The notes under the pieces are model-generated. The model worked only from the letters and a program-made list of their open reading frames with translations, ran no database searches and was not told the origin of the DNA. A DNA stretch of 53,290 nt from a virus, in UHGV virus genome UHGV-0119950; one strand, given 5' to 3'. Positions 51 through 53,240 of the stretch are shown in pieces. Positions within the stretch are counted from its first letter, which is position 1, and every line of letters begins with the position of its first letter. A program made the translations under genes and the position numbers.

Positions 51-724
51 TAGCGCAGTTCGAACAGGTATCCCTGACCACGGACGGTGGTAATCACATC
101 ATCAGGATATCGCGCCTGAATTTTTTTGCGTAAGCGCCCCATTAATACATCAATGGTATGGCTTTCACGCAGTTCCGCATCCGGGTAGAGCTGTAGCATC
201 AACGAATCTTTGCTGACGACTTTGCCATTATTGCGGATCAGCGTTTCCATAATGGTGTATTCAAACGCCGTCAGTTTTATCACTTCATCATTTACGGACA
301 ATTCACGGCGGGAGAGATCCACCTGAAAAGGCGGAATAGAGATAACCTGCGAGGCCAGGCCGCTGTTGCGGCGCATTAACGCCTGCATACGCGCGACCAC
401 TTCTTCAATATGAAACGGTTTTGTCACGTAGTCGTCGGCGCCTGCGCTCAGCACTTCCACTTTATCCTGCCAGCCTTCACGGGCGGTTAATACCAGAACA
501 GGAAGGGAAACGTCATTGCTGCGCCAGCGGCGGATCAGCGAAAGCCCGTCTTCATCCGGGAGGCCTAAATCGACGATGGCGATGTCCGGCAGATGCTCGT
601 TAAGATAATAATCGGCTTCCTTTGCATCTTCTGCGTCATCAACCTGGTGCCCCAAATCCTGTAATTGAACCTTCAGGTGGTGGCGTAATAAGGCATTATC
701 TTCGACAACCAGTACGCGCATCAT
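50..724 (-). CDS. phoP: response regulator PhoP (OmpR family)
   Basis: 224 aa; near-identical over its length to E. coli/Salmonella PhoP as I recall them ([19 protein letters not shown]...[12 protein letters not shown]); receiver plus winged-helix domains. Confidence 0.95.
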
Positions 725-3750: not shown

Positions 3751-3760
3751 GATTTCCCCC

Positions 3761-6700: not shown

Positions 6701-6796
6701 CGCTTCAAAATCATCGCTGCACCAGAGAACTGCATCTTTATGGCCAGATGATTTCTTTGCTTTGCGGACTAAAAATACAGGATTAGTTCCACTCAT
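3761..6796 (-). CDS. exodeoxyribonuclease VIII-like (RecE-like) with long acidic central region
   Basis: About 1011 aa from ATG with RBS GAGGA (MSGTNPVFLV...); large size, nuclease-like C-terminus and pairing with RecT-like gene. Track ORF start at 7003 would overlap upstream gene. Confidence 0.7.
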   Translation of the reverse strand: MSGTNPVFLVRKAKKSSGHKDAVLWCSDDFEAANATLDYLLIKSGAKLKDYFKAVATNFPVVNELPPEGELSLTFCDFYQLGKDNMTWVQIPGVTLPSSEAVAVARQRIVDGVDTETGEVLEDHTEDFGNEEVVDTETGEIIQHDQASTEDNGDLPEHPQLTVVATMPFRHRVLAQHIGDGEYLYHVDAEQKKAILALEMDTDNSYVQNLLLAAENVEPFKKAIEHDIHKAVNAVKSVFPADGKIPELASVIQFLKTWFDTPHIDRGLLVKEWCKGNRVSEINRTPSGANAGGGNKTDRLTPLTKTGLEYEIALGLIARNKEFDIYSPSFEIDVEANAIMNLSRSGEDNVLDEFIATCKLFEEMPGGMDYSRACNVATVKTTPEELFKSPFRHREYLNRVMTETDHAHPDEMIVDIACGRSSMPMPMAPAPEKVTSALELLREEVERQLAAGRGEFVPGISDPNDPKWVKTETSQQTEQPELVKKVADDIFDVSALMQNSSTHGTKQEAETTSDVQVQETVSDEKQTGDALRTSESDLGNGEEADTGEQADVDHNQSEVSQNNDSASHSEPEAQQEEPTPVWPEYFEPGRYEGVPNEVYHAANGISSTMVKDARVSLMYFEARHVSKTIQKERTKVLDMGNLVHALALQPEQLEKEFSIEPEIPEGALTTTATIRAVIDEHNASLPPLLSADDIKALLEEYNTTLPAPLPLGASVDESYASYEQLPEEFQRIENGTKHTATAMKACIKEYNATLPPQVKTSGSRDALLEQLAIINPDLVAQEAQKPQPLKVSGTKADLIQTVKTVKPETVFADELLDAWRENPGDKILVTRQQLSTAQAIQKALLNHPTAGKLLTHPNRAVEVSYFGIDEETGLEIRVRPDLEIDMGGLRIGADLKTISMWNIKQEGLRAKLHREIIERDYHLSAAMYCETAALDQFFWIFVNKDENYHWIAIIEASEELLELGMLEYRKAMRAIANGFDTGEWPAPITEDYAEELNDFDVRRLEALRVQA

Positions 6797-6920
6797 TATT
6801 TGATCCTCAATTCGTGTAGAATGGAGGCGCCTTAATGGCACCTCGGTTTTACCAGGTGATGTCCGGTGTAACTTTGGTCGGTGCCACCGGACGGAAGGCC
6901 CACCCTGTGTGGGCTTTCGC

Positions 6921-7208
6921 TTAATGAACAGTTCTGAAAACTTTTTCTGAGTAATCGAGTTTGTAGCTGCGGTAGTTGCCAAAACCGGCGTTATCGCCAT
7001 CACTTACTTTCACGGACAACATTGAAATTGCCTCTACAGCACAAAGAGGACAGTCGAACTTGCCGAATACATAGCCACCGTCAAGAATGACCGTGACCGC
7101 GCCCGTTTCGGCTGAATGAATAACGCCTGATACTTTCTTCTCGCAGTTGAATACAGCCAATTCTTTATTCACTGCTTTCAGGTTCATTTCGATTTTTGCG
7201 ATTTCCAT
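6921..7208 (-). CDS. hypothetical early protein
   Basis: 95 aa ORF in early-left operon. Confidence 0.45.
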   Translation of the reverse strand: MEIAKIEMNLKAVNKELAVFNCEKKVSGVIHSAETGAVTVILDGGYVFGKFDCPLCAVEAISMLSVKVSDGDNAGFGNYRSYKLDYSEKVFRTVH

Positions 7209-13714: not shown

Positions 13715-14280
13715 AATCAACGGTAGAAACAAAAATCATTGAGTTAGTGAAGTCAGGGCATGAGCTGGCGAAAGAACTGCATTGTGCTGAGTCTGCCGCG
13801 CTGGTGAACTATCTGGCAACGCAGCTTGAAGTGCATTTTGCCCGTAGCAATGCGCTGGCTGCAAAACTGAGCATGATTAACGACCTCATGGATGCCGCTG
13901 AACAGGCCAACAAACTGGCGCAGGAAGCAACGGAAAAACTGGTACAGGAGCGTGACGCTCTGGCTGCGGAACTAAGCGCAGTTGAGTCCATTCACAACGA
14001 TGCAGTATTCATCACTGACGAGCACTATGAGCAATGCCCGCGAGAAGTTCAGAAGATAGTTCGATCGCTGGCTGTGTTGCAGATACCTGCTTACGACTCT
14101 TTCCTGGATGAAGTGCGGGCGCATGACCTTAACGCCTTCATTCAGCATCACAGTGCAGAACTGGATGCGCATATTAAAAACGGTGGTGAGCAGTTCGACG
14201 AAAAATCAGTACGCATCAGAGACATCATCGTCTCAGTTCGCTTGTTCATGGATCAACTTCGCAAAGGCGGTGCAGCATGA
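13711..14280 (+). CDS. hypothetical coiled-coil protein
   Basis: ATG at 13711 with RBS GGGGAGG, overlaps upstream stop (ATGA). Confidence 0.45.
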   Translation: MKSTVETKIIELVKSGHELAKELHCAESAALVNYLATQLEVHFARSNALAAKLSMINDLMDAAEQANKLAQEATEKLVQERDALAAELSAVESIHNDAVFITDEHYEQCPREVQKIVRSLAVLQIPAYDSFLDEVRAHDLNAFIQHHSAELDAHIKNGGEQFDEKSVRIRDIIVSVRLFMDQLRKGGAA

Positions 14281-14825
14281 AACCAACATTAACGGCAGAA
14301 TTGCGAAGGGAACTGCATAAATTGGCAACTGACGCGCACGAGTTGGGCATCATCAAGCGGTATTCGAAGGGACTAGAGGCGCAGAGAAAATTTTACGCTG
14401 CTGCAACCCCTCTGGTTATTCGCGCGCTGCTGGATGAGCTGGAAGCGCTCCAGTCTTTCCGTACCGCATTCAATGAGTGGCACGATAAAACAGAATGGGT
14501 GCAGACGGATAAGCGGCTTGACGTCATTAAGCCGTGGGGTAAGCACCGCGCCGACGTTCTGAAGCTCTATATCGATCACCTGGAATCAAAGCCGGAAGCC
14601 AAAGAAGAACAGCGAGCTAACTGGTTTCATATGGCGCAGAAGTTAGGCGAGAATTTGGACGCCGCAGAGAAGCGCATAGCAGAACTGGAGGCGAAATTAG
14701 CTAACCCCGTGCTGCTCCCGAAAACAAACGGCTACTGGACTGAGCAAGAAAAGGCGTATGAAGAAGCCATTATGTTCGCTAAGCGGCAGGTTCGTCTGGC
14801 TGGATTCAGTGTGGAGGACATGTAA
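14277..14825 (+). CDS. hypothetical protein (Ead/Ea22-like early protein)
   Basis: 182 aa helical ORF; start overlaps upstream stop. Confidence 0.4.
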   Translation: MKPTLTAELRRELHKLATDAHELGIIKRYSKGLEAQRKFYAAATPLVIRALLDELEALQSFRTAFNEWHDKTEWVQTDKRLDVIKPWGKHRADVLKLYIDHLESKPEAKEEQRANWFHMAQKLGENLDAAEKRIAELEAKLANPVLLPKTNGYWTEQEKAYEEAIMFAKRQVRLAGFSVEDM

Positions 14826-15067
14826 TGGCTATTTTTATGGAAGTACGTTGTGCAGGTCGCGGTGATGTTGATGGTTGCCATTCTGACCAGAACGCCGAAC
14901 CAATGACGACAGCACATGAAAGCGTTAAGGGTGTTTCTACGGCGCTGAAATTTCTTAAAGACGATTCACTCAATAACGGCTGGGTGTTGCACAAAGGTGA
15001 GCTTTATTGCCCGGCATGCGCCGAAGCAAAAGCATGGGACGCCGCTGGCATCGGTAAGGGGGAGTGA
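14825..15067 (+). CDS. hypothetical protein with C-terminal CPAC motif
   Basis: 80 aa ORF. Confidence 0.35.
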   Translation: MAIFMEVRCAGRGDVDGCHSDQNAEPMTTAHESVKGVSTALKFLKDDSLNNGWVLHKGELYCPACAEAKAWDAAGIGKGE

Positions 15068-15069
15068 TA

Positions 15070-15254
15070 TGAAACGAGAAATTATTACCGTCACCCGTCC
15101 TGGAAACTGCTGCCCAGGGCATGACAAATACCCATGCGAAAAATACAGAAACAGACGCTCTGTTCGCCAGCGCGCTATCGGTATTAAAAAAGAACATCGC
15201 CATGTGCGCAGGAATATGCGTCAGGAGTTGCTTTCAGTTATAGGTGAGGACTAA
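15070..15254 (+). CDS. hypothetical small Cys-rich basic protein
   Basis: 61 aa from internal ATG (MKREIITVTRPGNCCPGHDKYPCEKYR...). Confidence 0.35.
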
Positions 15255-15257
15255 CCC

Positions 15258-15536
15258 ATGACCACTATTACCAGAGAGCTTATCGCCGCATATCTTAACG
15301 GCGAAGTTAAAACGCTCACTAACAGCGAACAGAAAGAGCTGGCGCGTATCGCGCTGGCATCGCTGGACGATGAAATAAAACTACGCCCTGTAGGGGTTAT
15401 GAGCGAGTCAGCCTTTCATAGGCTTGAACGCAGCGAGTCACGTTTTATTGCGCTGTGGCCTCGTCCTGGTATCTTTTTGCCGCGCCCACGTCCAGACGAT
15501 GGCGTTATCGTTTATGCAAAGGTTGAGGGTGCGTGA
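15258..15536 (+). CDS. hypothetical protein
   Basis: 92 aa ORF in tightly packed early operon. Confidence 0.4.
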   Translation: MTTITRELIAAYLNGEVKTLTNSEQKELARIALASLDDEIKLRPVGVMSESAFHRLERSESRFIALWPRPGIFLPRPRPDDGVIVYAKVEGA

Positions 15537-15772
15537 TGGCTATTGCATCAGGATATTCCATTGACGCCTATTGCGACTGCGAACAATGCGTAAATAACAT
15601 CGACCCAGTTGGTCGTTGGTGCCGTCAAGAAATGATCAGCGCAACCGGAGAGTCTTACGCAGAATGCGCTGCGCTAATCCGTAGCTATGGCTGGAAGTTA
15701 AGTCGCAACAAGATGCATGCGTTGCACCTGGGCATAAAAAACCGAAATCATGGAGTAAATTATGACAACTAA
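15536..15772 (+). CDS. hypothetical Cys-containing protein
   Basis: 78 aa; ATG overlaps upstream stop. Confidence 0.4.
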   Translation: MAIASGYSIDAYCDCEQCVNNIDPVGRWCRQEMISATGESYAECAALIRSYGWKLSRNKMHALHLGIKNRNHGVNYDN

Positions 15773-16337
15773 CAACCACCCGGCGCACGGCCCGCTCTCA
15801 GATTACCGATTGCACTGCATTCGTGAAATCTTGGGCAAAGCAGCAGCACAAAGAGACGGCGGTAATCTCGGTTACGCAATGTCTGATGCTGTGAAAGCGT
15901 TTGATGAACTGCTGGAAGTGCGCAAGGCGGAGCCGGTTGCTTTCATCAATGGAGCGTGGACGCTGGTTTATTATCGCCCGCCGAAAGAATCTGGTCTGAA
16001 GATTGGCGATAAGCTCTACACCGCCCCGCCAGCGCCTGTAGATAACACGTTCATCCCCAAAAATCTGGACAGAGCGCTCGGCGTGGTTGGCGTGGCGCTA
16101 CCTGAGTCGAAAGAGGAGTTTAATTTCCAGATTGAGCGCTGGATACAGCGACTGATTGACCGTGTTATTCGTTACTCCGATGAATTCAAAGAGCAACCAG
16201 CACCAGTAGTGCCACCAGAGCAAAACTGGGAAGAGTTATGCCGACAGCATCCAGACATGAGCATCGGTGATGCCATTATTCGCGCTGCATGGTGGAATCT
16301 TTGCCGCGCCGCCATGCTTCAGGGGGATAAATCGTGA
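15762..16337 (+). CDS. hypothetical protein
   Basis: 191 aa ORF. Confidence 0.45.
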   Translation: MTTNNHPAHGPLSDYRLHCIREILGKAAAQRDGGNLGYAMSDAVKAFDELLEVRKAEPVAFINGAWTLVYYRPPKESGLKIGDKLYTAPPAPVDNTFIPKNLDRALGVVGVALPESKEEFNFQIERWIQRLIDRVIRYSDEFKEQPAPVVPPEQNWEELCRQHPDMSIGDAIIRAAWWNLCRAAMLQGDKS

Positions 16338-16825
16338 AAACTATCCAGTTATCTGAGCGTGAGCTTTTCATGATTTTCAACATGCTGACGCCGCCCTACG
16401 CAGTCAGCGACACCCACACAGACGAGTTCAACGAATTGCGTAACAAAGTCTTTTACGCTCTGCGTGATGCTCAGAACGATGAACCTGTAAGTAATCGTGA
16501 TGAGTTGCCGCTGGACTATCTTCAAGGCCACAAAGACGGACTTGAGTGGGCTGCACAACTGGCTGAGGCTAATCACCCACAAACCGGCGATTGGCTTTAC
16601 GATGACCCGACAGAGCTTGCAAAGGCGATACGCAAGGGGCCGGATATGCCATTACCCAATGGCAACTCTCCGGTGATTCCGAATGGTTGGGTAATGGTGC
16701 CTGTTGAGCCAACAGAAGCGATGATTAACGCTTACAGAGGTGCACTTTATTCAGGGGAGTCGGCTGTCTCCTGTATTGATTTGTACAAGGCCATGATTGC
16801 AGCAGCGCCACAGCAGGAGGAATGA
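16334..16825 (+). CDS. hypothetical protein
   Basis: 163 aa ORF, GTG start overlapping upstream stop. Confidence 0.45.
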   Translation: MKTIQLSERELFMIFNMLTPPYAVSDTHTDEFNELRNKVFYALRDAQNDEPVSNRDELPLDYLQGHKDGLEWAAQLAEANHPQTGDWLYDDPTELAKAIRKGPDMPLPNGNSPVIPNGWVMVPVEPTEAMINAYRGALYSGESAVSCIDLYKAMIAAAPQQEE

Positions 16826-17082
16826 TGGATCAACTTCTGCAATACGCCACCAATCGGATTATAGAACTGGAAAACCTTCTGCTGGTGAATGTTGAGGAAA
16901 CGGTCTGGCCAGCAGAGGTTCAGATGGTTTTTAGTCAAATCGAAAACGCCGGGAGTTTCCCGGCGCACCACCAGCGCCGATTGCAGCACCACATCAACAG
17001 AATGTGGCTGGAAAAAATACCGGTTACTTCGATTATTGCCGCAGCGCGCTCGCTGGCAGATGCAATGGAGAAATACGCGTGA
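16822..17082 (+). CDS. hypothetical protein
   Basis: 86 aa ORF. Confidence 0.4.
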   Translation: MMDQLLQYATNRIIELENLLLVNVEETVWPAEVQMVFSQIENAGSFPAHHQRRLQHHINRMWLEKIPVTSIIAAARSLADAMEKYA

Positions 17083-19160
17083 GAAATAGCGAAATCATTG
17101 TTGATAATTTTGCTGGTGGCGGCGGTGCTTCCACTGGAATTGAGATGGCGACTGGCCGCAGCGTGGACATTGCGATTAACCACGATCCGAATGCCGTTGC
17201 GATGCACACGACAAACCACCCCAATACACTGCATTATTGCGAATCTGTCTACGATGTCAGGCCGAAGGTAGCGACCGCCGGGCGTCCGGTGGCGCTGGCG
17301 TGGTTCTCGCCGGATTGCCGTCACTTTTCAAAAGCCAAAGGTGCGAAGCCGGTAGAGAAAGCGATCCGGGGTCTGGCCTGGGTAGTTCTGCGCTGGGGGC
17401 TGGATGTAAAACCCCGGGTGATGAAACTGGAGAACGTCGAAGAATTTAAAACGTGGGGCCCTTTGCTCGCTGGTGAAATGAGGCCAGACCCGGCCCGTGC
17501 TGGAGAAAATTTTGAGGCGTTCATTGGTATGCTGACTACTGGCATCCGGGCTGACCACCCGGCACTGGCGGAGTGCTGTGAATTTCTGGGTATTTCTCTT
17601 GATAGTGAAGACGCCGCGAGGCTGATCAAAGGGCTGGGCTACATCGTCGAGTATCGCGAGTTGCGCGCCTGCGACTACGGTGCGCCGACGATCCGCAAGC
17701 GATTCTTTATGATTATGCGTTGTGACGGGAAACCGATTGTGTGGCCTGAGCCAACACATGGCGATCCGAAATCACCGGCTGTCCAGGCTGGTAAGCTGGC
17801 ACCGTGGCGCACAGCTGCGGAGTGCATAGACTGGACAATTCCGGCTCCATCGATATTCGATCGCAAAAAGCCGCTGGCAGAAAATACCCTTAAGCGCATC
17901 GCGCGCGGCATCCAGCGATTTGTTATCGACAGTGCGTCGCCGTTTATCGTGAAGTGCAACCACACCAGCAGCCGTTCAAGTTATGATTGTTTCCGTGGGC
18001 AGCCACTGGAAGAACCCCTGCAAACGATCACGAAAAAGCATGGTTACGCCGTCGCAGTACCACATCTGACGAAGTTCCGTACCGGCGCAACCGGGCAGGA
18101 AGTCACCGAACCTGTACCGACTGTAACAGCTGGCACGTCGGCGCGCCCGGGTGGGAATGGTCATGCGCTTGGTATCGTTGAAGCTGCGCTGACTCCGTTC
18201 CTGGCTGGTAATGGCGGCAGTGAGTACCAGGCTAAGCCGCGCCCGCTGGATAAACCAGCTCACACTATACTGAAACAATCCCGGGCATGTGTCGTTGCGC
18301 CGGTTATCGCCCGACAGTTTGGCGCCAGCACCGGCCACCGCGCAGATGAGCCGAACGCGACTATTACCGCTGGTGGCGGCGGTAAATCGCAACTTGTTAC
18401 ATCGACACTGATCCAGATGGGATACGGGGAAAGGCCAGGTCAGGAACCTCGCGTTCTCCAGATCGAAAAACCGTTAGGGACAGTAACCGCTGGTGGAAAC
18501 AAGTTCGCCGTGGCCAGCGCATTTCTGGCGAAGCACTACGGCGGCAACTATACGGGACCGGGCGTCGGGCTGGATGAGCCGACTCACTCAGTTACGACGG
18601 TTGATCATCATGCGGTTGTTGCGGCACATCTAATGGTGAACAACACCGGGCATCCTGGCGGCTCCGTGGACTCTCCAGCGCATACCGTTACAACAGGAAA
18701 TCACCATGCTGTAGTGACTTCTCATCTTGTGCATTTGCGAGGGTTCTGCAAAGACGGTCAAAAAATGGATCAGCCGGTGCCAACGATTACCGCCGGAGGC
18801 CAGCATGTTGGGGAGGTGAAAACCACTCTGGCAGTTGAGCACTACAACGAACAGCGCGCGCAACAGACGTTGGCGTTCCTGCGTGAATATTGCGGCGAAG
18901 ATTGTACCGGGCTGGTGGATATCGACGGGATCACATATCGTATTGTTGATATCGGAATGCGCATGCTGCAACCGCATGAGCTTTACCGCGCGCAGGGCTT
19001 CCCGGACTGGTACATCATCGATCGGGATTATCGCGGCGTGAAGTATGCAAAGGATAAGCAGGTTGCCCGCTGCGGTAATGCTGTGCCGCCACCGTTCGCC
19101 GAGGCTCTGGTAAGGGCCAATTTACCCGAACTTTGCCAGCCGAAAGAAATGGCAGCGTAA
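17079..19160 (+). CDS. DNA (cytosine-5) methyltransferase with eight tandem repeats in the variable region
   Basis: Motif I DNFAGGGG, motif IV SPDCRHFS (Cys present, PDC not PCQ), motif VI LENVEEF, motif IX QGFPDWY, motif X CGNAV; GTG at 17079 with GGAG upstream chosen over track start 17004. Confidence 0.8.
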   Translation: MRNSEIIVDNFAGGGGASTGIEMATGRSVDIAINHDPNAVAMHTTNHPNTLHYCESVYDVRPKVATAGRPVALAWFSPDCRHFSKAKGAKPVEKAIRGLAWVVLRWGLDVKPRVMKLENVEEFKTWGPLLAGEMRPDPARAGENFEAFIGMLTTGIRADHPALAECCEFLGISLDSEDAARLIKGLGYIVEYRELRACDYGAPTIRKRFFMIMRCDGKPIVWPEPTHGDPKSPAVQAGKLAPWRTAAECIDWTIPAPSIFDRKKPLAENTLKRIARGIQRFVIDSASPFIVKCNHTSSRSSYDCFRGQPLEEPLQTITKKHGYAVAVPHLTKFRTGATGQEVTEPVPTVTAGTSARPGGNGHALGIVEAALTPFLAGNGGSEYQAKPRPLDKPAHTILKQSRACVVAPVIARQFGASTGHRADEPNATITAGGGGKSQLVTSTLIQMGYGERPGQEPRVLQIEKPLGTVTAGGNKFAVASAFLAKHYGGNYTGPGVGLDEPTHSVTTVDHHAVVAAHLMVNNTGHPGGSVDSPAHTVTTGNHHAVVTSHLVHLRGFCKDGQKMDQPVPTITAGGQHVGEVKTTLAVEHYNEQRAQQTLAFLREYCGEDCTGLVDIDGITYRIVDIGMRMLQPHELYRAQGFPDWYIIDRDYRGVKYAKDKQVARCGNAVPPPFAEALVRANLPELCQPKEMAA

Positions 19161-34359: not shown

Positions 34360-35820
34360 ATGGATGTCATTGTTGGTGGGGTTCCTTATGTCCGCGCCGA
34401 TAGCGTTTCCCATAATAAAATTGGAATCGCGATAACCACTCACAACAGGCCGGATGTCCTCGCAAAATCACTTGAGCAACATCGAAAATATTTACCTCCC
34501 GGTGCGGTCGTGTTCGTCATTGATGATGGTTCAAATCCGCCAGCAACAGCTCCGGGTTGGTGTAATTTAATCCGGCACGATAATTCAAAAGGCATTGTTG
34601 CTTCGAAGAACGCCAGTCTTACAGCGCTGATGGATGCCGGGTGCGAGCATCTTTTTTTATGGGACGATGACGCATGGCCGATTGCCGATGGCTGGCATCT
34701 TCCGTATATCGAATCGCCTGAGCCGCATCTTGCGTATCAGTTCCTCGACCTTGCCGGGCCGCGAAAACTTAACGATCTCGCTGTGCTTTATAGCGACGAT
34801 AAGCATGTGGCGTACACCGGACAGCGCGGCGTGATGCTGTATTACCACCGCAGCGCTATCGAGCGTGTCGGTGGTTTCGACTGGATTTACGGGCGCGGCA
34901 TGTACGAACACAGCGACCTTGCCCTGCGCATCCATAACGCCGGGCTGACGACGTGGGTTTATGCCGACGTCACCAGCTCAGATAAGTTGATTCATTCGCT
35001 CGATGAGCATGAAGCTGTAGACCGTTCGGTGCCAACGGCAGACAGGAAAGCGCTGGTGGAACGTAATGTAAAAATCCACAACGAGCGGCGCGATACGGGG
35101 TATACCGGCTATGTCGAATACCGGCGCCAGCGCGACGTTGTGATCACAACATTACTGACGAGCCAACCGGACCCGCAGCGCGGTACGAAAATGACGGCCT
35201 CGCCTGACATGCTGGCTAAATGGGCGGCTTCGCTCCGGCAGTGTGGACGTATCGCGCTGGTGGATGAATTACTAACGGCCCCGGCAGATGTTGAGCTATG
35301 TCGCGTTCCTGACGTGAAGATGAATGTCTACTTTCGTCGCTGGTTGCACATCTGGCAGCACCTGCGAGATCACCCTGAATACCGGTTCGTCTGGTGTACC
35401 GATGGTACCGATGTCGAAATGCTTCGCGCGCCATGGGAAGAAATGGAGGCCGGGAAGCTCTACGTTGGCTCGGAGCCGAAAACTTACGCTGACGCCTGGG
35501 CAAAACAGAATCATCCTGAACGCATCTATCAGGAATTCATCGAACAGCATCGCAACGATGTGATGCTTAACGCCGGGCTTCTGGGTGGCACGCGCGCTGA
35601 TGTGATGGCGTTCGCTCACGGCATCATCCGTCTTTACTACCGGATCGAGAGTTATCGGTTCTGGAAGACAGAGCAGGCTGATGCAGCGGTGGGCGATATG
35701 ATCGCATTTGGCATTGTCGCGCAGTCATTTGGCGATCGCATTGTCACCGGCCCGCGCATCCACACAGTGTTTAAGTCTGAAGGTATCGGTAAGGAGTACG
35801 CCTGGTTTAAACATAAATAA
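34360..35820 (+). CDS. two-domain glycosyltransferase (N-terminal GT-A/GT2-like)
   Basis: 486 aa; GIAITTHNRPDVLAKSL...VFVIDDGSNP and LWDDDAWP (DxD) match GT2 signatures; C-terminal half not identified. Confidence 0.7.
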   Translation: MDVIVGGVPYVRADSVSHNKIGIAITTHNRPDVLAKSLEQHRKYLPPGAVVFVIDDGSNPPATAPGWCNLIRHDNSKGIVASKNASLTALMDAGCEHLFLWDDDAWPIADGWHLPYIESPEPHLAYQFLDLAGPRKLNDLAVLYSDDKHVAYTGQRGVMLYYHRSAIERVGGFDWIYGRGMYEHSDLALRIHNAGLTTWVYADVTSSDKLIHSLDEHEAVDRSVPTADRKALVERNVKIHNERRDTGYTGYVEYRRQRDVVITTLLTSQPDPQRGTKMTASPDMLAKWAASLRQCGRIALVDELLTAPADVELCRVPDVKMNVYFRRWLHIWQHLRDHPEYRFVWCTDGTDVEMLRAPWEEMEAGKLYVGSEPKTYADAWAKQNHPERIYQEFIEQHRNDVMLNAGLLGGTRADVMAFAHGIIRLYYRIESYRFWKTEQADAAVGDMIAFGIVAQSFGDRIVTGPRIHTVFKSEGIGKEYAWFKHK

Positions 35821-44469: not shown

Positions 44470-44982
44470 GTGAAACGATTTTTGCTGGTTTCTGCCGTAA
44501 TTTTACTGGCCGGATGTTCGGCTAAATACAATACGAACAATATTCAGAGCAACACTGAGCAGTTAGTCAAAGATGCTCCAGTTGCTATTTCTATGCCATC
44601 TGATGGGGTATATGAAACCCGCACATATGCTGGCTCTGGAAATTCGACAGCGACTGCATTAAAAGCTGCTTTTTTGCGACATTCAGATAACGTAGCGATT
44701 TACGCTGATTGTGAAGATGTTACTTGTCTGAAAAATAATCATACAATCCATCATGGATACTACGTTGTTCCTCAGATATTGCATTGGGAGGACAGGGCTA
44801 CTGAGTGGTCAGGAATTCCAGATAAAATTGAAGTGAAAATTACAATTTATAATGCAGAATCCAACAATCGGATTGCCTCAACGATTATTAGCGGGAAAAG
44901 TAAGTGGGCAACATTTGGTGGTGATCATCCGCAAGACTTGTTGCCAGAGCCAGTAAACTCGTACATCTCCAGCCTGTATTAA
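44470..44982 (+). CDS. lipoprotein moron inside the tail module
   Basis: GTG start; signal peptide MKRFLLVSAVILLAGCS with lipobox LAGC; AT-rich; own terminator downstream. Confidence 0.6.
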   Translation: MKRFLLVSAVILLAGCSAKYNTNNIQSNTEQLVKDAPVAISMPSDGVYETRTYAGSGNSTATALKAAFLRHSDNVAIYADCEDVTCLKNNHTIHHGYYVVPQILHWEDRATEWSGIPDKIEVKITIYNAESNNRIASTIISGKSKWATFGGDHPQDLLPEPVNSYISSLY

Positions 44983-45051: not shown

Positions 45052-45432
45052 ATGTTCAATCAAGATAAATACCTTTCGGTCAGATGGCTGAAGGGCGGTC
45101 GCGCTTACCCTGAACTTGACTGTTTCGGCATTGTGAATGAGGTGCGTCGCGATCTGGGGCTTCATGAGTGGCCGGATTTCGCCGGAGTGACGAAAGATAG
45201 TGGAGGGCTTAATCGAGAAGCGAGGAAACTGATGCTTTCCCTACAACGCTGCGAGCCATGTGAAGGTGCGGGTGTTGCCTGCTATTCAGGCTCAACTGTT
45301 ACGCATGTCGGCGTTGTCGTGGTGCTTAATGGCCGTCTGCATGTGGCCGAATGCAACCCTAAATCCAACGTTTCTTTTACGCCGGTGGCGCAGTTTGTTC
45401 GCCGCTTCGTTAAAGTGGAGTTCTGGAAGTGA
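45052..45432 (+). CDS. tail protein with NlpC/P60-like Cys/His pattern (gpK-like position)
   Basis: 126 aa; LDCFGIV and THVGVV resemble C40 peptidase Cys and His contexts. Confidence 0.45.
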   Translation: MFNQDKYLSVRWLKGGRAYPELDCFGIVNEVRRDLGLHEWPDFAGVTKDSGGLNREARKLMLSLQRCEPCEGAGVACYSGSTVTHVGVVVVLNGRLHVAECNPKSNVSFTPVAQFVRRFVKVEFWK

Positions 45433-48146
45433 CCATCAGAATTTATCCTTCCCGGTTACCCGGCGAGCCGCTGGAAACGCATGAACATGGTGCGGTGACT
45501 ATTCATCAGTGGATGGCGCGGAATGTTGAAAATTACCGCGCTGACATGAAGCATCCGATCGCCATTGAAGTGGACGGCGTGAATATCCCGGCTGCTGCAT
45601 GGTTTGATTATGCGATCAGCCCGAAAAGTGATGTGCGCATTTATCCGGTCCCTCATGGCGCCGTTGCGCTGGCGTGGATTGCCGTTGCTGTTTCGGTCGC
45701 ATCTGTTGCTTATGCGCTGTTCTTTGCGCCTGGCGCATCAGATCCCGGTGGTTTCTCTTCGTCGACAGGCGATTCACTGGACGTTAACCCGGCAAAAGCG
45801 AACCGTGCAAAGCTGGGTGATCCAATTCGCGAGTTGTTCGGACGCCGCCGAATTTACCCCGATTACGTAGTGCAACCGGTAACCCGCTTCAGCCCGGACG
45901 ATCCGACAGTGATGACCGTTGAAATGTTCGTTGCTCTGGGATTCGGACAATTTTCATTCGGCGAAGGGGATATGCGCGTCGGCGCCACGCCAGTTTCATC
46001 GCTTGGTGATGGTTTCGCATACACCGTTTTTCAGCCGGGCCAGAATGTGGCTGGTGATCGCCGTAGTGAAAACTGGTTTAACTCTACCGAGGTTGGCGGG
46101 ACGTCATCGGGTGCCGGGCTGGATATGGCCCAGACCGCACCGGATACGGATGATGTGTTAGCGCAGTCACTGACGGTGTCGGGAAGCACAATCACGTTTA
46201 ACGGATTAAGCGCTGATGATGATACTGCAACAAACGAGCTGCCTGATTCGTGGATTGCTGGCGCAACGGTTGAGCTAATCGTACCCGATCAGTTTGTTGT
46301 TACCAATGATGGCGCATACAGCCGCATTACCAGTGACAATCTGGCGGAAATAGCCCCTTACGTCGGAATGCCGGTAACGCTCTGGTACAACAGCGTCGAC
46401 TACAGTCTGTTTATCGCTTCGTATACGCCGCATGCAGACGCGACAGAGGAAGAAGAGGAAGTCACCGCGTCGATAACGCTGGCTTATGAGAGTGAAACCG
46501 GCGCGCCTTTTACGGGTATTCCTGAGGGGTATATCAGGCTTTCCGTTTCTCACGCTGGGTATCAGTACAAAATTTTCGATGTGGACGGCACCAGTGTAAC
46601 TCTTCAACGCTTGATTGATGGTGTTGTCGATAACACATGGCCGGGTTTCGTGGCGCGCACCGTGCTTGATTTTGAGGCATCTGGCGTTAACCAGAACGAC
46701 TCCTGGATGGGCCCGTTTCTGGCATGCCCGGATAATGAAACCATCGACATGTTTGAAGTGAATTTCTTCTTCCCGAATGGCATTTGCGGATACGACAAAA
46801 AAGGGAGAAAACAAAACAGAACGGTTCGCTGGGAAGTTCAGTACCGCGTTTATGGCTCTGGTTCGGGATGGATGAGCAAAACCGGTTCGTATAACACAAA
46901 AAATATTAATGGCCTTGGTTTCACTGAGCGCATCACGCTGAGTTCTCCCGGCCTTGTTGAAGTGCGGTGCCGACGCACTAACGAACAGGGGCAGGATAAC
47001 AGCCGCGATAATATGTACTGGCAATCATTGCGTGGCCGCCTGCTGACCAGACCGTCATCGTACGCTGGCGTAACGACTATGGGGGTCACGGTGGAAACCG
47101 GCGGCAAGCTGGCGGCGCAGTCCGATCGCCGGGTGAACGTGGTAGCCACAAGGATTTACGACACTGGCGCGGCGCGCAGCATATCCGGCGCGCTGTACCA
47201 CGTTGGTAACTCGTTGGGGCTGGATATGGACACCGACGCCATTAATGCGCTGGAAAGCGCGTACTGGACGCCTGACAATGAGTTTTTTGACTTCGAGACG
47301 ACCGATAGTACATCTGCGCTGGAGGTTTTACAGAAGATCGCCAACGCCGGGAAAAGCTATTTTCTGCTGGCAGACGGGCTTGCCTCGGTTGCGCGCGAAG
47401 GCGTTAAGCCCTGGTCGGGGGTTATCAGTCCGCATGAGATGACCGAGGATCTGCAAACCGCGTTTGTGGCTCCTTCTGACGACGACTATGACGGCGTGGA
47501 TGTTACGTATATCAACGGAACGACATGGGCGGAGGAAACGGTACAGTGCCGGACACCGGATAATCCAACGCCCGTAAAAATCGAAGACTATACGCTTGAT
47601 GGCGTGCTAGACCGGGACCGGGCATATCAGATCGGCATGCGGCGGCTGATTAAGTACCTACAGCAACGGCTGACGCATACGACATTAACCGAACTGGACG
47701 CCCTTTGCTATAACGTCGGCGACCGCATAGTGCTGACAGACGATATTCCTGGCAATAAAACCATTTCCTGTCTGGTTGATGAAATGACAACCGAAAATGC
47801 GCTGACAACATTCACGGTAACCGAGCCATTGGATTGGAGTTATGAAAACCCGCGAGTGATCATCCGATTTCAGGACGGGACCGCATCATCTCTTCTTACG
47901 GCAATCAGGGCTGGTGATTATCAGGTGACGGTGCGATACCTGAATGAATTTGCTGAAATCGTCCTCAATGATCCGGCTATTGAGCCACCACGCCTTATTT
48001 TTTGCGACTCTTCGCGCGTTGGCTATAACGCCATTATCTCTGAGATCGCGCCTCAATCTGATGGCACATGCCAGATAACGGCGAAACAGTATAAACCCAG
48101 CTTCTACGATTACGACAATGCCACTTATCCCGGCAACGTCGTATAA
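45429..48146 (+). CDS. tail tip / host specificity protein (gpI-like N-terminus fused to gpJ-like body)
   Basis: 905 aa; N-terminal region with hydrophobic segment as in lambda gpI; large size; followed by terminator and tailspike gene. Confidence 0.65.
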   Translation: MTIRIYPSRLPGEPLETHEHGAVTIHQWMARNVENYRADMKHPIAIEVDGVNIPAAAWFDYAISPKSDVRIYPVPHGAVALAWIAVAVSVASVAYALFFAPGASDPGGFSSSTGDSLDVNPAKANRAKLGDPIRELFGRRRIYPDYVVQPVTRFSPDDPTVMTVEMFVALGFGQFSFGEGDMRVGATPVSSLGDGFAYTVFQPGQNVAGDRRSENWFNSTEVGGTSSGAGLDMAQTAPDTDDVLAQSLTVSGSTITFNGLSADDDTATNELPDSWIAGATVELIVPDQFVVTNDGAYSRITSDNLAEIAPYVGMPVTLWYNSVDYSLFIASYTPHADATEEEEEVTASITLAYESETGAPFTGIPEGYIRLSVSHAGYQYKIFDVDGTSVTLQRLIDGVVDNTWPGFVARTVLDFEASGVNQNDSWMGPFLACPDNETIDMFEVNFFFPNGICGYDKKGRKQNRTVRWEVQYRVYGSGSGWMSKTGSYNTKNINGLGFTERITLSSPGLVEVRCRRTNEQGQDNSRDNMYWQSLRGRLLTRPSSYAGVTTMGVTVETGGKLAAQSDRRVNVVATRIYDTGAARSISGALYHVGNSLGLDMDTDAINALESAYWTPDNEFFDFETTDSTSALEVLQKIANAGKSYFLLADGLASVAREGVKPWSGVISPHEMTEDLQTAFVAPSDDDYDGVDVTYINGTTWAEETVQCRTPDNPTPVKIEDYTLDGVLDRDRAYQIGMRRLIKYLQQRLTHTTLTELDALCYNVGDRIVLTDDIPGNKTISCLVDEMTTENALTTFTVTEPLDWSYENPRVIIRFQDGTASSLLTAIRAGDYQVTVRYLNEFAEIVLNDPAIEPPRLIFCDSSRVGYNAIISEIAPQSDGTCQITAKQYKPSFYDYDNATYPGNVV

Positions 48147-48166
48147 CAACAATCTCTCCAATACAG

Positions 48167-48188
48167 ACCCGCTCCGGCGGGTTTTTTC
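48167..48188 (+). terminator. rho-independent terminator
   Basis: ACCCGC-TCCG-GCGGGT hairpin followed by TTTTTT. Confidence 0.6.
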
Positions 48189-48203: not shown

Positions 48204-50165
48204 ATGACGACTTACAACACCGGCAATCCGCTGGGGTCTGCTGCTGCAAAAGATTTGTACGATAACGCCCAGAACCTTGATCACCTTTCAAATGACCAGG
48301 AAAATGAGCTATGGCCTGATCGTTTTGGTAAAAATCGCCTTACATGGCACGGAATGGAAGAGCGTTATAAAACAGCGCTCGCAAACCTCGGTTTAAATCC
48401 TGTCGGGACATTTCAGGGCGGGGCGGTTATTAATTCCGCCGGTGACATCATCCAGGATGAAACAACAGGCGCATGGTATCGCTGGGATGATCTCACGACC
48501 CTGCCGAAAACCGTTCCATCTGGTTCTACTCCAGATTCATCCGGCGGCACAGGTGTCGGAAAATGGCTGGCCGTAGATGTCAGCGATGTGTTGAGAAAAC
48601 AACTTGCTGAAGAAGGAAGTCAGGTTCTCATTTCTGGTGAAACCGCTGACGATGTGGCTCTTGCTTCAAAAACGGCTAAACTTTTATCACAGTATTCACA
48701 TGTTCGTAGTTATTCTGATGATAGCGAAAAAATACTTAATATCTTTGATAATGAAAATTGCTCTCTCGAAGGTGGAGTGTACTACTTAAATGATTCCTTC
48801 GACTTCATAGGTAATAAAAATATTAGAGTTAATAAAGACACGACAATTAATGTAACCGGAGAAATAGATCAACTATTTAGATTCCTTGGTCATGTGGCAT
48901 GGGATGGGTTAGGTAAGCTTACTATTAATGCAAATCATTTTGACAAGCCTGACAGAACTGAGTCTATTCTTTGCTTTCCAAATTATATCCCAACCCTTAA
49001 TAATATTGATATCCATGGAGCTAACGGGCTTTCTGTTCTGGTCGGAATGCCTAGTTTTGGACCCGGAGCACCTGTTGCACAAGGTATCGGATATATAAAA
49101 AATGTACGTACATTTGATTGTGGAAAGGGGGTGCATGTATATGGTAATGTTAATAAAGATACCACAATTATTACAGAGAATCTTTATACCGATAATTTAA
49201 CTGGTTATCTGAATGGCAATGGAAACGGTGGCGGCGGAAATACTTTTTATCTTTCGTATCATCGCCAGGCTAAAAACATCGGTGGATACTTTGAGCATCA
49301 TCCTGACAGCTATGGATCAAATATCAACAGGAGTCTTTATGGAGCCTACGAGGGTGGATGGTTTCAAGGGGCTGATGGAACTCAGTCGCGGGGCCCAACT
49401 TTTGGTGAGGATCTCGAGTATGGTGCGATATATGGCGGAGGTGTTTCAAGAAATTGTGGCTTTGCTGCAATTTCCGCTGACATCAGAAAATCAGATGGCT
49501 CATATCCGATTTCTAGAGTTTTAATTGACGGGTGGACTGCTATAGAGTGTGGTAGAACTATATATTCTCAGGCGCAAGATCTCAGTTTCGGAAATATTCA
49601 CACAAAGGAATCTAAGTCTGGTGATTTTTTGATAAGGATTAATGGTGCAACTCCTAAATCAGTTAAGCAAACTGGTGTGGTAACAGCGTTTAATGGAACA
49701 TCGTCGACAAAACCTACTCTTATTTGGGCGGATAAGACCACATCTTTGTATCTGATTCCTGAACAGATAGTCTCTGATGATACCGTTAACATTAACGTGC
49801 CTGTAGTAGCTGATAACTCAACATCCACAGGATCGGAAATAAATATAGGAACCCAGTATCCCATTGTTACTCAAGATTATATAATCCCGAACATGCGTAG
49901 AGTAACGGAGGTTGATATGTCTTTAGTTTCATCAGTCATAACACTCAGACTTCCAGCAGCAAATCTAAGCAATATAAAAGGTATGCAGCATAAAATTTAT
50001 GTGAGAGGTGGCAATGGAACAAAAATATTACGAATTACGGTTAATAATGCGGATGGTACAATAAATGGAGCCACCGGATACATTGATTTTACACCACAAG
50101 CAGGATCTGTGCGTGTTATTGATTGCCTGAACAAAGGTTCAGGCAATTACCTTGTAACCACGTAA
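48204..50165 (+). CDS. tailspike / tail fibre protein with AT-rich C-terminal receptor-binding module
   Basis: 653 aa; N-terminal part at backbone GC, C-terminal about 520 aa AT-rich, Asn/Gly/Thr-rich as in beta-helical tailspikes. Confidence 0.65.
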   Translation: MTTYNTGNPLGSAAAKDLYDNAQNLDHLSNDQENELWPDRFGKNRLTWHGMEERYKTALANLGLNPVGTFQGGAVINSAGDIIQDETTGAWYRWDDLTTLPKTVPSGSTPDSSGGTGVGKWLAVDVSDVLRKQLAEEGSQVLISGETADDVALASKTAKLLSQYSHVRSYSDDSEKILNIFDNENCSLEGGVYYLNDSFDFIGNKNIRVNKDTTINVTGEIDQLFRFLGHVAWDGLGKLTINANHFDKPDRTESILCFPNYIPTLNNIDIHGANGLSVLVGMPSFGPGAPVAQGIGYIKNVRTFDCGKGVHVYGNVNKDTTIITENLYTDNLTGYLNGNGNGGGGNTFYLSYHRQAKNIGGYFEHHPDSYGSNINRSLYGAYEGGWFQGADGTQSRGPTFGEDLEYGAIYGGGVSRNCGFAAISADIRKSDGSYPISRVLIDGWTAIECGRTIYSQAQDLSFGNIHTKESKSGDFLIRINGATPKSVKQTGVVTAFNGTSSTKPTLIWADKTTSLYLIPEQIVSDDTVNINVPVVADNSTSTGSEINIGTQYPIVTQDYIIPNMRRVTEVDMSLVSSVITLRLPAANLSNIKGMQHKIYVRGGNGTKILRITVNNADGTINGATGYIDFTPQAGSVRVIDCLNKGSGNYLVTT

Positions 50166-50176
50166 TGCCGATTATT

Positions 50177-51262
50177 TTACGTATTTACGATATTTTTCTT
50201 AACTTTTGCAGCGCGCGGCGCTAAATGCCGCGCCACTTTCCTTGAAGGTTCTTCTACAATGTGGAAAAGTATATGCGAAATGGCGAAACTTACGCCAACA
50301 ATCAACAAAACATTTGAGAATCCAAGTTTAGGATTATAAAATGGCACGGGAAGGTATTTTTTAAGAAGTACAGTTATTACTATTGTATGTACAAGATAAA
50401 GCGAATAAGAAACGTTGCCCATCCAGTCAAGGATTTTATTTAATTTTATCTCTCTTGTTGTTTCGAATATTGAAAGAGAAAGCAAAAGCATAAAAGCATA
50501 AACACCACAATTTAGCAATCCGTGACCGCCATTATATCCAGACATATAGAAGAATATAAATGCAAAAACAGAAATAAAGAGTAACGGCGCTGATATATTT
50601 TTGAAAGAGTGAATTTTTGCATAGTTATAGATCTGATAGATAACCATCCCAGCGACGAACTCAAGTAGCATTGGCGATGCGAACAGTTTTAGCACCCATG
50701 GGGCGCTAGGGTCGTTTAATGTTGAATATCCACTAAGATTAATCTCACCATTATATAGTATTCCCAAAATAGATACTGAAGCAATTATTATTGCAGTGCT
50801 AATATAAAATCTATTCTTCCAGGAAATCGACATCGCAAATGAAAATATGATGTAAAAAATTATCTCATACGTCAGAGTCCAGGCAGTTGATATCACCGAA
50901 TAACCGAACCAAGGGGCTGATTTCTCAAAGTTTAAGTTAATAAAGAAAAGGGCTTTTAGATAATTAATATCTATCGGCTTTGTGAATATTAATGCGCATG
51001 ACACCAGACATATAAAATAAACAGGGTATAATCTAAAAAAACGCTTCACAATAAATGAACGAACAGAGGAGTCCTTTTCTGTTGACAACATGATTACAAA
51101 TCCACTTATCATGAAAAAAAGATCCACTCCTATGTATCCATAGTTAAACAATATGTTACCCAAATTGCTCTGAGCATAAATATTGTTCAATTCTCCACGG
51201 GCATGATATAAGACGACAAGCAAAGCAGCTATTCCACGGAGGTATTGCAAAGAATAAAGCAT
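50177..51262 (-). CDS. acyltransferase family 3 membrane protein (O-antigen acetylase-like)
   Basis: 361 aa, many transmembrane segments; N-terminal LRGIAALLVVLYHA signature; AT-rich; convergent with tailspike. Confidence 0.75.
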   Translation of the reverse strand: MLYSLQYLRGIAALLVVLYHARGELNNIYAQSNLGNILFNYGYIGVDLFFMISGFVIMLSTEKDSSVRSFIVKRFFRLYPVYFICLVSCALIFTKPIDINYLKALFFINLNFEKSAPWFGYSVISTAWTLTYEIIFYIIFSFAMSISWKNRFYISTAIIIASVSILGILYNGEINLSGYSTLNDPSAPWVLKLFASPMLLEFVAGMVIYQIYNYAKIHSFKNISAPLLFISVFAFIFFYMSGYNGGHGLLNCGVYAFMLLLSLSIFETTREIKLNKILDWMGNVSYSLYLVHTIVITVLLKKYLPVPFYNPKLGFSNVLLIVGVSFAISHILFHIVEEPSRKVARHLAPRAAKVKKNIVNT

Positions 51263-51515
51263 TTTATTAGCCTTGGTTGTTTATTTTTTAATAGTAAGAA
51301 ATTTATCAATTCTAGCATTCATCCCGCTTGTGAGCGACAATTTTGTTAACATTATGTCATTGTGATGGGTGCGCATTTAAAAAATCATTACTGGTGGTTG
51401 CCTGCTGCTGACTTCCCACCTGACCAATCACCCATAAAACTAAATTTCACCTCCCGCCAGTCACTTACTGTTTCATTCACTCTTAGGGGCTTGATTGCTG
51501 CCACCGATGCAATAA

Positions 51516-51535
51516 TACTGTATGTATAGACAGTG
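51516..51535. promoter_or_regulatory. LexA box upstream of umuD
   Basis: TACTGTATGTATAGACAGTG, exact CTGT-N8-ACAG, 18 bp upstream of the umuD-like start. Confidence 0.7.
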
Positions 51536-51552
51536 TCATTGAGGTGATTATC

Positions 51553-51972
51553 ATGCAGTTTTTCACGCCTACAGAACCACGCCAGATAGTGTCGCTCCCA
51601 ATGTTTAGTGATCTTGTGCAATGCGGGTTTCCTTCGCCAGCCGCAGATTACGTTGAGTCGCGTATAGACCTTAACGAATTGCTGGTGCGGCACCCAAGCG
51701 CGACGTATTTCGTAAAGTCCACTGGAGATTCTATGCGTGATGCTGGAATCGGCGAGGGCGATTTGTTGGTAGTCGACAGTTCACGAAAAGCAGGGCATGG
51801 AGACATTGTCATTGCAGCGGTCGATGGTGAGTTCACAGTTAAGCGCCTGTTGCTGCATCCGGTTGTCATGCTAAAGCCTGAAAACTCTGTGTATAAACCA
51901 ATCATGATTGGGAGTGAAGACAATCTGGAGGTTTTTGGCGTCGTAACTTACATCGTGAAGTCTGCTGACTGA
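51553..51972 (+). CDS. umuD: UmuD-like protein (S24 peptidase, pol V accessory subunit)
   Basis: [18 protein letters not shown]...[13 protein letters not shown]...[17 protein letters not shown] matches E. coli UmuD as I recall it; RBS GAGGTG. Confidence 0.85.
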
Positions 51973-51974
51973 GT

Positions 51975-53240
51975 ATGTTTGCGCTCGTGGATGTGAACAG
52001 TTTTTATGCGAGCTGTGAAACGGTATTCAGGCCAGACCTCAAAGGAAGGCCGGTAGTCGTTCTCTCTAACAACGATGGCTGTGTCATTGCGCGTTCGGCA
52101 GCAGCGAAGCCCTTTGTGAAAATGGGGGAGCCCTATTTCAAACAAAAAGAGACTTTTCGCCGTCACGGCATCGTCGCGTTCTCCAGTAACTATGAGCTTT
52201 ACGCTGATATGTCGAACCGCGTAATGACAACGCTGGAAGAAATGAGTCCTCGCGTCGAAATTTACAGCATAGACGAGGCATTTTGCGATCTTACTGGTGT
52301 GAGAAACTGCCGTGACCTTACTGAGTTTGGCCGGGAGATCCGCACTACAGTATTACAGCGTACACATCTCACCGTCGGTGTCGGTATTGCGCAGACAAAA
52401 ACCCTCGCGAAACTGGCTAACTATGCGGCAAAGAAGTGGCAACGACAGACTGGCGGCGTTGTTGATTTATCGAACCTTGATCGTCAGCGTAAACTCATGG
52501 CAGTACTGCCTGTTGATGATGTATGGGGTATCGGGCGACGCATTGGCAAGAAACTTCAGGCGATGGGCATCAAAACTGCTCTTGACCTGGCTGATACAGA
52601 TGGCCGGTTTATCAGGAAGCATTTCAATATTGTGCTCGAAAGAACGGTACGCGAGCTGCGTGGTGAGCCGTGTCTGGAACTGGAAGAGTTTGCACCAGTA
52701 AAGCAGGAGATCGTCTGCTCACGCTCTTTCAGTGGTCGTATCACTGCTTACGAAGAGATACGCCAGGCGATATGCAGCTACGCATCACGCGCAGCGGAAA
52801 AGTTACGGGGCGAGCATCAGTATTGCCGGTTTATCTCCGCGTTCGTGAAGACAAGCCCGTTTGCACTGAACGAACCGTATTACGGCAACAGTGCCTCTGT
52901 GAAGCTTCTGACCCCGACGCAGGACAGCCGGGACATTATCGACGCGGCCACGCGATGCCTGGATGCTGTCTGGAAAGACGGACACAGGTATCAGAAGGCT
53001 GGTGTGATGCTTGGTGACTTCTTCAGCCAGGGCGTGGCGCAACTAAATCTGTTTGATGACAACGCACCGCGCGCTGGTAGCGAAAAACTGATGGAAGTGC
53101 TGGATCATCTCAATGCCAAAGACGGCAGAGGAACACTGTATTTCGCAGGGCAGGGCATACAACAGCAATGGCAGATGAAACGGGAGATGCTCTCACCGCG
53201 ATATACCACTCGATATGAAGACCTTTTATGTGTTAAGTGA
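51975..53240 (+). CDS. umuC: UmuC-like Y-family DNA polymerase (pol V catalytic subunit)
   Basis: 421 aa; MFALVDVNSFYASCETVFRPDL...SIDEAF typical of UmuC; follows umuD by 2 bp. Confidence 0.9.
   Translation: MFALVDVNSFYASCETVFRPDLKGRPVVVLSNNDGCVIARSAAAKPFVKMGEPYFKQKETFRRHGIVAFSSNYELYADMSNRVMTTLEEMSPRVEIYSIDEAFCDLTGVRNCRDLTEFGREIRTTVLQRTHLTVGVGIAQTKTLAKLANYAAKKWQRQTGGVVDLSNLDRQRKLMAVLPVDDVWGIGRRIGKKLQAMGIKTALDLADTDGRFIRKHFNIVLERTVRELRGEPCLELEEFAPVKQEIVCSRSFSGRITAYEEIRQAICSYASRAAEKLRGEHQYCRFISAFVKTSPFALNEPYYGNSASVKLLTPTQDSRDIIDAATRCLDAVWKDGHRYQKAGVMLGDFFSQGVAQLNLFDDNAPRAGSEKLMEVLDHLNAKDGRGTLYFAGQGIQQQWQMKREMLSPRYTTRYEDLLCVK

Follow-up and report, generated by a model that had tools for sequence, protein, structure and literature searches.

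A tailspike body and a convergent acyltransferase gene inherited as one block in a siphovirus prophage of Citrobacter koseri

The viral genome UHGV-0119950, a stretch of 53,290 nucleotides (nt) that was analyzed at its full length and is called the window below, is a prophage inserted between phoP and purB of Citrobacter koseri. It carries a tailspike gene and, converging with it, a gene for a membrane-bound acyltransferase. We found that the C-terminal body of the tailspike and the acyltransferase gene have been inherited as one block, which is also present on an unrelated phage backbone. The locus is another example of the serotype-conversion arrangement of phage Sf6 and not a new type of system; new here are the carrier, a siphovirus with a TipJ-type tail tip in C. 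koseri, and the tailspike body, which is modeled as a previously uncharacterized beta-helix. By analogy with characterized prophages, the acyltransferase probably acetylates the glycan used by the tailspike and thereby blocks binding or cleavage, which would result in superinfection exclusion. The locus comprises the following features:

48204..50165, plus strand: tailspike gene, an open reading frame (ORF) of 653 amino acids (aa)
48204..48590, plus strand: N-terminal adaptor of the tailspike (aa ~1-129), GC content 0.51, common to related prophages
48591..50165, plus strand: swapped tailspike body (aa 130-653), predicted to be receptor-binding and enzymatic, GC content 0.39
50177..51262, minus strand: gene for an acyltransferase consisting of an acyltransferase-3 (AT3) domain only, an ORF of 361 aa, polytopic, convergent with the tailspike gene
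48385..51345, no strand assigned: cassette block, a single contiguous segment with homology on an unrelated phage backbone

Both ORFs were recovered exactly where a preliminary description of this DNA had placed a tailspike gene and a convergent, AT-rich 361-aa polytopic acyltransferase. The distance of 12 bp past the tailspike stop that it reported had to be corrected, since the two stop codons are separated by 11 nt (50166-50176). Its division of the tailspike gene into an N-terminal part with the GC content of the backbone and an AT-rich body agrees with the measured values (0.509 for 48204-48590 vs. 0.392 for 48591-50165). The GC content of the acyltransferase gene is 0.350, that of the whole window 0.502 and that of the TipJ gene 0.532, and the 1-kb bin 50001-51000 has the lowest GC of all bins in the window. 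Low GC as a sign of a special origin was considered and rejected: low GC of both the tailspike body and the AT3 gene is general in the related cassettes examined (12/12) and thus not distinctive here. The reported richness of the body in Asn, Gly and Thr was found as well (8.2/11.6/8.0% vs. 4.6/8.0/8.6% in TipJ), but the N-terminal part is equally rich in these residues (7.8/11.6/10.1%), so that composition is no marker of the swapped module.

Comparison of the window with the loci L003, L011 and L012, which have tape measure and tail genes different from those of the window, gave one blastn high-scoring segment pair (75% over 2.97 kb, 48385-51345). It extends from approximately residue 61 of the tailspike through the body and the acyltransferase gene to a position 83 nt upstream of the acyltransferase start. 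At the protein level, the bodies are 84% and the acyltransferases 83% identical. The proportion of synonymous differences (pS) is close to saturation in both genes (0.74 for the body and 0.71 for the acyltransferase), non-synonymous divergence (dN) amounts to 0.10 and 0.12, respectively, and dN/dS is 0.03-0.06. Since pS is similar and dN/dS is low, the two genes have co-diverged under purifying selection. A further copy of the acyltransferase gene, with 86% identity, is located in a non-phage genomic island with two integrases (L009/L010). Homology of L009 to the window starts at 49838, so the acyltransferase gene there is still flanked by the 3'-terminal 328 nt of the tailspike gene. The acyltransferase is absent from L004 and L005, two virulent carriers of the body, and the temperate or remnant contexts that reach past the tailspike all carry one or two acyltransferases (3/3). 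As far as the sequence goes, the earlier proposal that the acyltransferase is a conversion gene matching the tailspike is supported by the single block on the other backbone, by the relic in L009 and by the Sf6-like layout.

To place these copies in a wider context, AT3 genes were sought within 2.5 kb of the tailspike in the 54 related prophages that have at least 1.5 kb of sequence downstream of it. An iterated hidden Markov model search detected AT3 near the tailspike in at least 15 of them, always downstream and in 13 cases convergent. These genes fall into 14 sequence types, and presence or absence of AT3 is concordant inside the clusters of tailspike types. A decayed prophage at the same phoP/purB site of another C. 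koseri strain (CP199717; L007:7253-12545) contains a split tailspike of the window family, with a match of 93% at the nucleotide level over 48440-48702 followed by a body with 53% aa identity. Downstream of this split tailspike an AT3-SGNH gene and then a second AT3 gene are encoded.

The mosaic structure of the tailspike becomes apparent from the comparison with backbone relatives, defined as the 80 loci with TipJ obtained from an IMG/VR scan; the tailspike gene could be found in 75 of these. The adaptor is present in all 75 loci, in the gene immediately after TipJ and with 36-94% aa identity, and the body of the window tailspike is present in none of these 75 TipJ-backbone tailspikes. Altogether, 56 tailspike body types were found among 70 TipJ-backbone loci. 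Nucleotide homology to the backbone ends at nested positions, at 48280, at 48358-48371 and, for the closest relatives, at 48589-48611, and it is back at 51394-51434, just upstream of umuD. When the 3-kb region was compared by megablast with phages, plasmids and E. coli genomes, similarity was confined to the initial 155-400 nt of the tailspike gene; the tail region yielded one weak match against phages. In an alignment of the few body-sharing proteins the common part starts around residue 128-135 ('LRKQLAEEGSQV...'), and the body follows at least five distinct N-termini, one of which is a P22 Head_binding domain. The absence of the body from the 75 backbone relatives, the breaks in homology and the occurrence of the body on other adaptors thus support a swapped host-range module, as had been suggested from the sequence composition.

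The sole Pfam domain found in the tailspike is Tail_spike_N (PF18668; aa 67-124, 4.9e-13), and the PHROG tail fiber/tail spike families match the first ~170-220 residues only. The adaptor is 51% identical to the N-terminus of the tail fiber of Salmonella phage Vi II-E1, and its residues 5-131 match the PDB sequence 9occ gp13; we propose that it docks the tailspike to the tail tip. The exact 653-aa protein is encoded on five contigs. Host assemblies with the window cassette are ERZ19693073 and ERR1620274, and those with its closest relative are SRR25209407 and ERZ761630. Two close backbone relatives have tailspike bodies that are not beta-helices. One of them (L016:10776-11960) combines Tail_spike_N with Exo_endo_phos (EEP), and downstream of it an S74-chaperone protein and, convergently, an AT3 protein are encoded; the other (L018:10781-13168) contains a SASA carbohydrate-esterase domain together with an S74 chaperone. 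A strong terminator-like hairpin (AGACCCGC-TCCG-GCGGGTTT, followed by a T-run) was observed at 48165-48184, downstream of the TipJ stop (48146) and ahead of the tailspike start (48204), where the backbone is conserved.

The structure of the C-terminal part of the tailspike was predicted, as the preliminary description had recommended. According to an AlphaFold2 model of the monomer, based on a 9-sequence alignment that includes distant relatives (predicted local distance difference test, pLDDT, 82.5; predicted template modeling score, pTM, 0.70), the body is a right-handed parallel beta-helix plus a C-terminal beta domain; a full-length model from six sequences had a pLDDT of 43 and was not used. 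The body is accordingly a beta-helix receptor-binding module and very probably a depolymerase. Columns that are invariant across distant body relatives include D426, R396, Q456, T329 and N373 (numbering of the full-length protein), and among the closer relatives E402 and D403 do not vary either. An esterase-type tailspike, which the Vi II-E1-like N-terminus had brought up, was rejected, as the body is modeled as a beta-helix and no SGNH or SASA signal was found.

The body is very rare. Six proteins were found in an index of 5.8 billion proteins, and repeating the word-indexed search with a profile of the body as query raised this number by only one, to seven; a search of 1.84 billion representatives yielded 10 clusters at E<=0.001. 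Its carriers of virulent type are an Ackermannviridae-like multi-tailspike contig (L004) and a Jedunavirus-like myovirus (L005). A scan of the GTDB species-representative genomes revealed no tailspike relatives, profile searches with the body against Pfam and PDB sequences gave no match, and NCBIfam had no match for either the tailspike or the acyltransferase.

The acyltransferase matches Pfam Acyl_transf_3 (PF01757) over aa 3-332 (profile positions 2-324 of 326; 127 bits with a cut-off of 31; 1e-36) and phrog_3333 'O-acetyltransferase' (9e-69). No Pfam match to the SGNH domain (PF19040) was obtained in the 361-aa protein, which is thus of the AT3-only form. The acyltransferase-3 signature LRGIAALLVVLYHA reported in the preliminary description is present, but it does not end the protein: it comprises residues 8-21 at the N-terminus, in the first transmembrane helix, and it stands at the "end" only when the plus strand is read. 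This helix contains the motif R9-X10-H20 (R9-GIAALLVVLY-H20), and the motifs FFMISGF (49-55) and RFFR (74-77) follow; BLASTP aligns R74/R77 with R73/R76 of Sf6 Oac. The R/K-X10-H motif of AT3 proteins has been described (PMC9558356), Shigella OacB depends critically on the corresponding His and Arg (PMC8952252), and the importance of the three AT3 motifs was shown by mutagenesis in Shigella Oac and OacB (PMC8952252, PMC9558356). At a strict Kyte-Doolittle cut-off the protein has at least seven separate hydrophobic segments, with ~10 helices being expected for an Oac-type protein. On these sequence characters the enzyme belongs to the AT3 family and is classified as an Oac-like AT3-only membrane O-acyltransferase. 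It is part of a small clade with identities of 99, 86 and 82%, outside of which the nearest proteins, from Citrobacter and E. coli, are 47-55% identical; the two of these that were examined are both prophage-borne and located at the tail-fiber/tailspike end. A relative among the PDB sequences was not found.

Two candidate expression signals are located in and around the acyltransferase gene:

51309..51317, minus strand: extended -10-like element TGCTAGAAT, 47 nt upstream of the acyltransferase ATG and inside the shared block
50213..50233, plus strand: GC-rich hairpin from a terminator-like scan, 48 nt past the tailspike stop and within the 3' end of the acyltransferase gene

The sequence TGnTAGAAT does not vary among the window, L003, L011 and L009, whose flanks have diverged, and a Shine-Dalgarno-like AAGG/AGGG is also kept in all four. 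A generic promoter scan did not list TGCTAGAAT, so that we infer from the motif itself that it may be the acyltransferase gene's own promoter. L003 and L009 have kept the stem of the hairpin with G-U changes; the hairpin has a weak T-run and possibly ends the late tail transcript. A LexA/SOS-box-like site (CTGTATGTATAGACAG, 51518-51533) was observed just 5' of the umuD/umuC-like pair. SOS control of the acyltransferase via this site is unlikely, because the box is part of the umuDC backbone segment outside the cassette, ~250 nt upstream, and because of the conserved promoter-like element at 51309-51317.

The closest known arrangement is that of Sf6, which is likewise temperate and encodes its tailspike (gp14, an endorhamnosidase) at 13719-15590 on the plus strand and oac (OacA) at 15624-16625 on the minus strand. 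In both phages an AT3-only enzyme, known in Sf6 to be an O-acetyltransferase, is encoded convergently near the attachment end, with a gap of 33 nt in Sf6 vs. 11 nt in the window, and the R-X10-H, FFxISG and RxxR motifs are found in Oac as well as in the window enzyme. However, the window acyltransferase is only 27% identical to Oac, over 180 aa, and the window phage is a siphovirus with a TipJ tail tip, whereas Sf6 is a P22-like podovirus. Furthermore, the host is C. koseri, the body is predicted to belong to an unrelated, uncharacterized beta-helix family, and umuDC lies between the acyltransferase gene and the right attachment site (attR), a position taken by int in Sf6. In Sf6, acetylation blocks the phage's own tailspike endorhamnosidase (PMC9558356). 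Similarly, the O-antigen acetyltransferase GtrC of the Salmonella prophage BTP1, which is of the OafB type, is both required and sufficient to protect against its own phage and shields the O-antigen from the prophage's tailspike (PMC4413052). The same protection mechanism may, by analogy, operate in the window, although GtrC and OafB are AT3-SGNH fusions and the window protein is AT3-only; the long AT3-SGNH form is present in the relatives L007, L025, L039, L042, L045 and L053. An enzyme of the same AT3 subfamily (47% identity) is encoded by P22-like E. coli prophages (P0017; L095-L097), also convergently and 25 nt from the tailspike stop. These prophages differ in their host and backbone and in their 789-aa tailspike of the P22 Head_binding type, which has an unrelated body. 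The beta-helix proteins of HK620, 9NA, CBA120 (TSP2/3), the Klebsiella K1 lyase and the K5 lyase share 8-13% sequence identity with the window body. In Klebsiella, prophage acetyltransferases have been tied to capsule type (PMC13123978).

From these comparisons, the following mechanism appears probable. The horizontally acquired beta-helix body most likely binds and depolymerizes a specific surface polysaccharide, either O-antigen or capsule, and the acyltransferase would be expressed in the lysogen from its own promoter. The enzyme most likely acetylates the polysaccharide of the tailspike, which the tailspike would then no longer bind or cut. As a consequence, superinfection by phages with the window tailspike type would be blocked, and the polysaccharide of the lysogen would be safe from the tailspike made on induction. 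Acetylation of the tailspike's polysaccharide and the resulting exclusion are proposed by analogy with Sf6 Oac and BTP1 GtrC (PMC9558356, PMC4413052); a block of the phage's own tailspike is supported indirectly by the co-inheritance of the two genes and by the lack of the acyltransferase gene in virulent carriers.

Several points weigh against this mechanism. Of the 54 relatives with sufficient sequence past the tailspike, 39 lack AT3, and the region between tailspike and attR serves as a general cargo slot, which also holds umuDC; the two genes may therefore be neighbors in part because this site tolerates insertions. Co-transfer was observed with one independent backbone and one relic, and the pairing is not fully exclusive, as one AT3-SGNH type (A3) occurs beside two tailspike types. 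Glycans of many kinds are acylated by members of the AT3 family (PMC9558356), and an NCBIfam equivalog match for the acyltransferase was not obtained. The substrates of tailspike and acyltransferase are both predictions from comparison with known systems, and the putative acyltransferase promoter is a conserved motif. It is also possible that the tailspike body binds its glycan without cleavage.

Some of these observations would fit an acyltransferase that is an independent moron, modifies a glycan other than the tailspike receptor and hitch-hikes in a recombination-prone cargo slot. Its target could be, for example, another O-antigen position, the enterobacterial common antigen, capsule or peptidoglycan, and the modification could be of benefit by altering antigens, by helping to evade serum or the immune system, or by excluding unrelated phages. 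Such an origin is in line with the other cargo (umuDC) and the many relatives without AT3, with the one AT3-SGNH type shared by two tailspike types and with the diversity of AT3 functions (PMC9558356). In its favor, too, the closest acyltransferase copy (86%) resides in a non-phage island, but that copy is still accompanied by a tailspike fragment. Moreover, both genes show equal divergence and form a single block on two backbones, and virulent phages with the same body lack the acyltransferase. The convergent layout is found in siphoviral and podoviral prophages alike, among them the experimentally proven Sf6. Taken together, we consider an independent moron, the main alternative, rather unlikely.

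A decaying relic, in which one or both cassette genes are nonfunctional or unexpressed, is highly improbable. Related copies are indeed broken, with the tailspike split in L011 and L007 and the AT3 gene split in L017, but in the window both ORFs are intact, the identical protein is found on five contigs, dN/dS is as low as 0.03-0.06, all AT3 motifs are intact, and the structural, integration and recombination modules of the prophage are complete. The pairing might also work in reverse, with a tailspike that needs the acetylated polysaccharide and a prophage enzyme that makes or keeps this form of the receptor or serves to mark cells: O-acetyl groups are required by some receptor-binding proteins of phages, relatives of the window carry SASA-esterase spikes, and the adaptor resembles that of Vi II-E1, whose family, we assume, uses acetyl-esterase spikes on acetylated capsule. 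We regard this as the least probable of the explanations, since the body is modeled as a beta-helix and not as an SGNH/SASA esterase, a temperate phage would have no obvious gain if the lysogen adsorbs its own progeny, and the characterized prophage cases Sf6, BTP1, phiV10 and D3 are all exclusionary (PMC9558356, PMC13123978).

The element is a temperate siphovirus with the cassette in its right arm. The PhoP ORF at 50-724 (minus strand) is exactly identical in sequence to C. koseri PhoP, and on a longer contig copy (L001) umuC is followed by purB-hflD-mnmA. A 15-bp direct repeat (TAACGCTGATTCTGT) is present at 757-771, between phoP and int, and at L001:13278-13292, between umuC and purB and ~191 nt beyond the end of the window; it is probably the att core that marks the prophage ends. 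The repeats flank the element, and therefore the tailspike/acyltransferase cassette and umuDC lie within the prophage. Full structural, integration and recombination modules are present. The gene order is integrase, RecT/RecE-like, C5 methylase, terminase, portal, Gp13-like capsid, tape measure, DUF1833, the TipJ protein (905 aa), tailspike, acyltransferase and the umuD/umuC-like pair. The genes at the left end and directly upstream of the tailspike are:

795-2081, minus strand: arm-binding tyrosine integrase gene, next to the PhoP ORF
45429-48146: TipJ-type tail tip gene, directly upstream of the tailspike gene

Some further genes of the prophage were noted. The umuD/umuC-like pair in the right arm encodes a Peptidase_S24 protein (51544-51972) and an IMS family polymerase (51975-53240), and it also follows the acyltransferase gene in the other backbone (L011) and in the relatives L016, L017, L068 and L082. 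At 44470-44982 the tail-assembly block is interrupted by a moron-like ORF of low GC (0.41), which separates the DUF1833 gene from the gene upstream of TipJ. Its 170-aa product is a DUF4823 protein and has a signal resembling that of lipoproteins (LLAGC). Directly after the major capsid gene, an unusual site for a glycosyltransferase-like gene, a 486-aa ORF (34360-35820) shows a weak match to glycosyltransferase family 2 (Pfam, 6.5e-5) and a weak, far sub-threshold MftF-like match in NCBIfam. The protein of 718 aa encoded at 17004-19160 has a C5 cytosine DNA methylase domain at its C-terminus only, and at 2641-7003 a recombination pair consists of RecT and a 1080-aa RecE-like protein (Exonuc_VIII plus PDDEXK).

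A more far-reaching interpretation, which we put forward tentatively and would not yet prefer to its alternatives, is that the body founds an uncharacterized family of depolymerases specific for a C. koseri surface polysaccharide. Together with a co-evolving AT3 enzyme it would form a lock-and-key cassette that moves among sipho-, myo-, podo- and Ackermannviridae-type phages, with AT3 being kept only in temperate carriers, where it would guard the polysaccharide of the lysogen as in BTP1.

C. koseri is a neonatal meningitis pathogen, and to our knowledge its phage receptors and serotype conversion have been little studied; a limited search of the literature on C. koseri prophages and O-antigen returned nothing specific. 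The concept of the locus does not go beyond the Sf6/BTP1 paradigm. It is, however, a clear case, defined by sequence, of a tailspike specificity module and a putatively cognate polysaccharide acetyltransferase that move as a unit across unrelated backbones. If the functions are confirmed, the tailspike body would be a candidate depolymerase or typing reagent, and the acyltransferase would be a predicted modifier of serotype and phage susceptibility, which would be relevant to phage therapy and to genome-based O-/K-typing.

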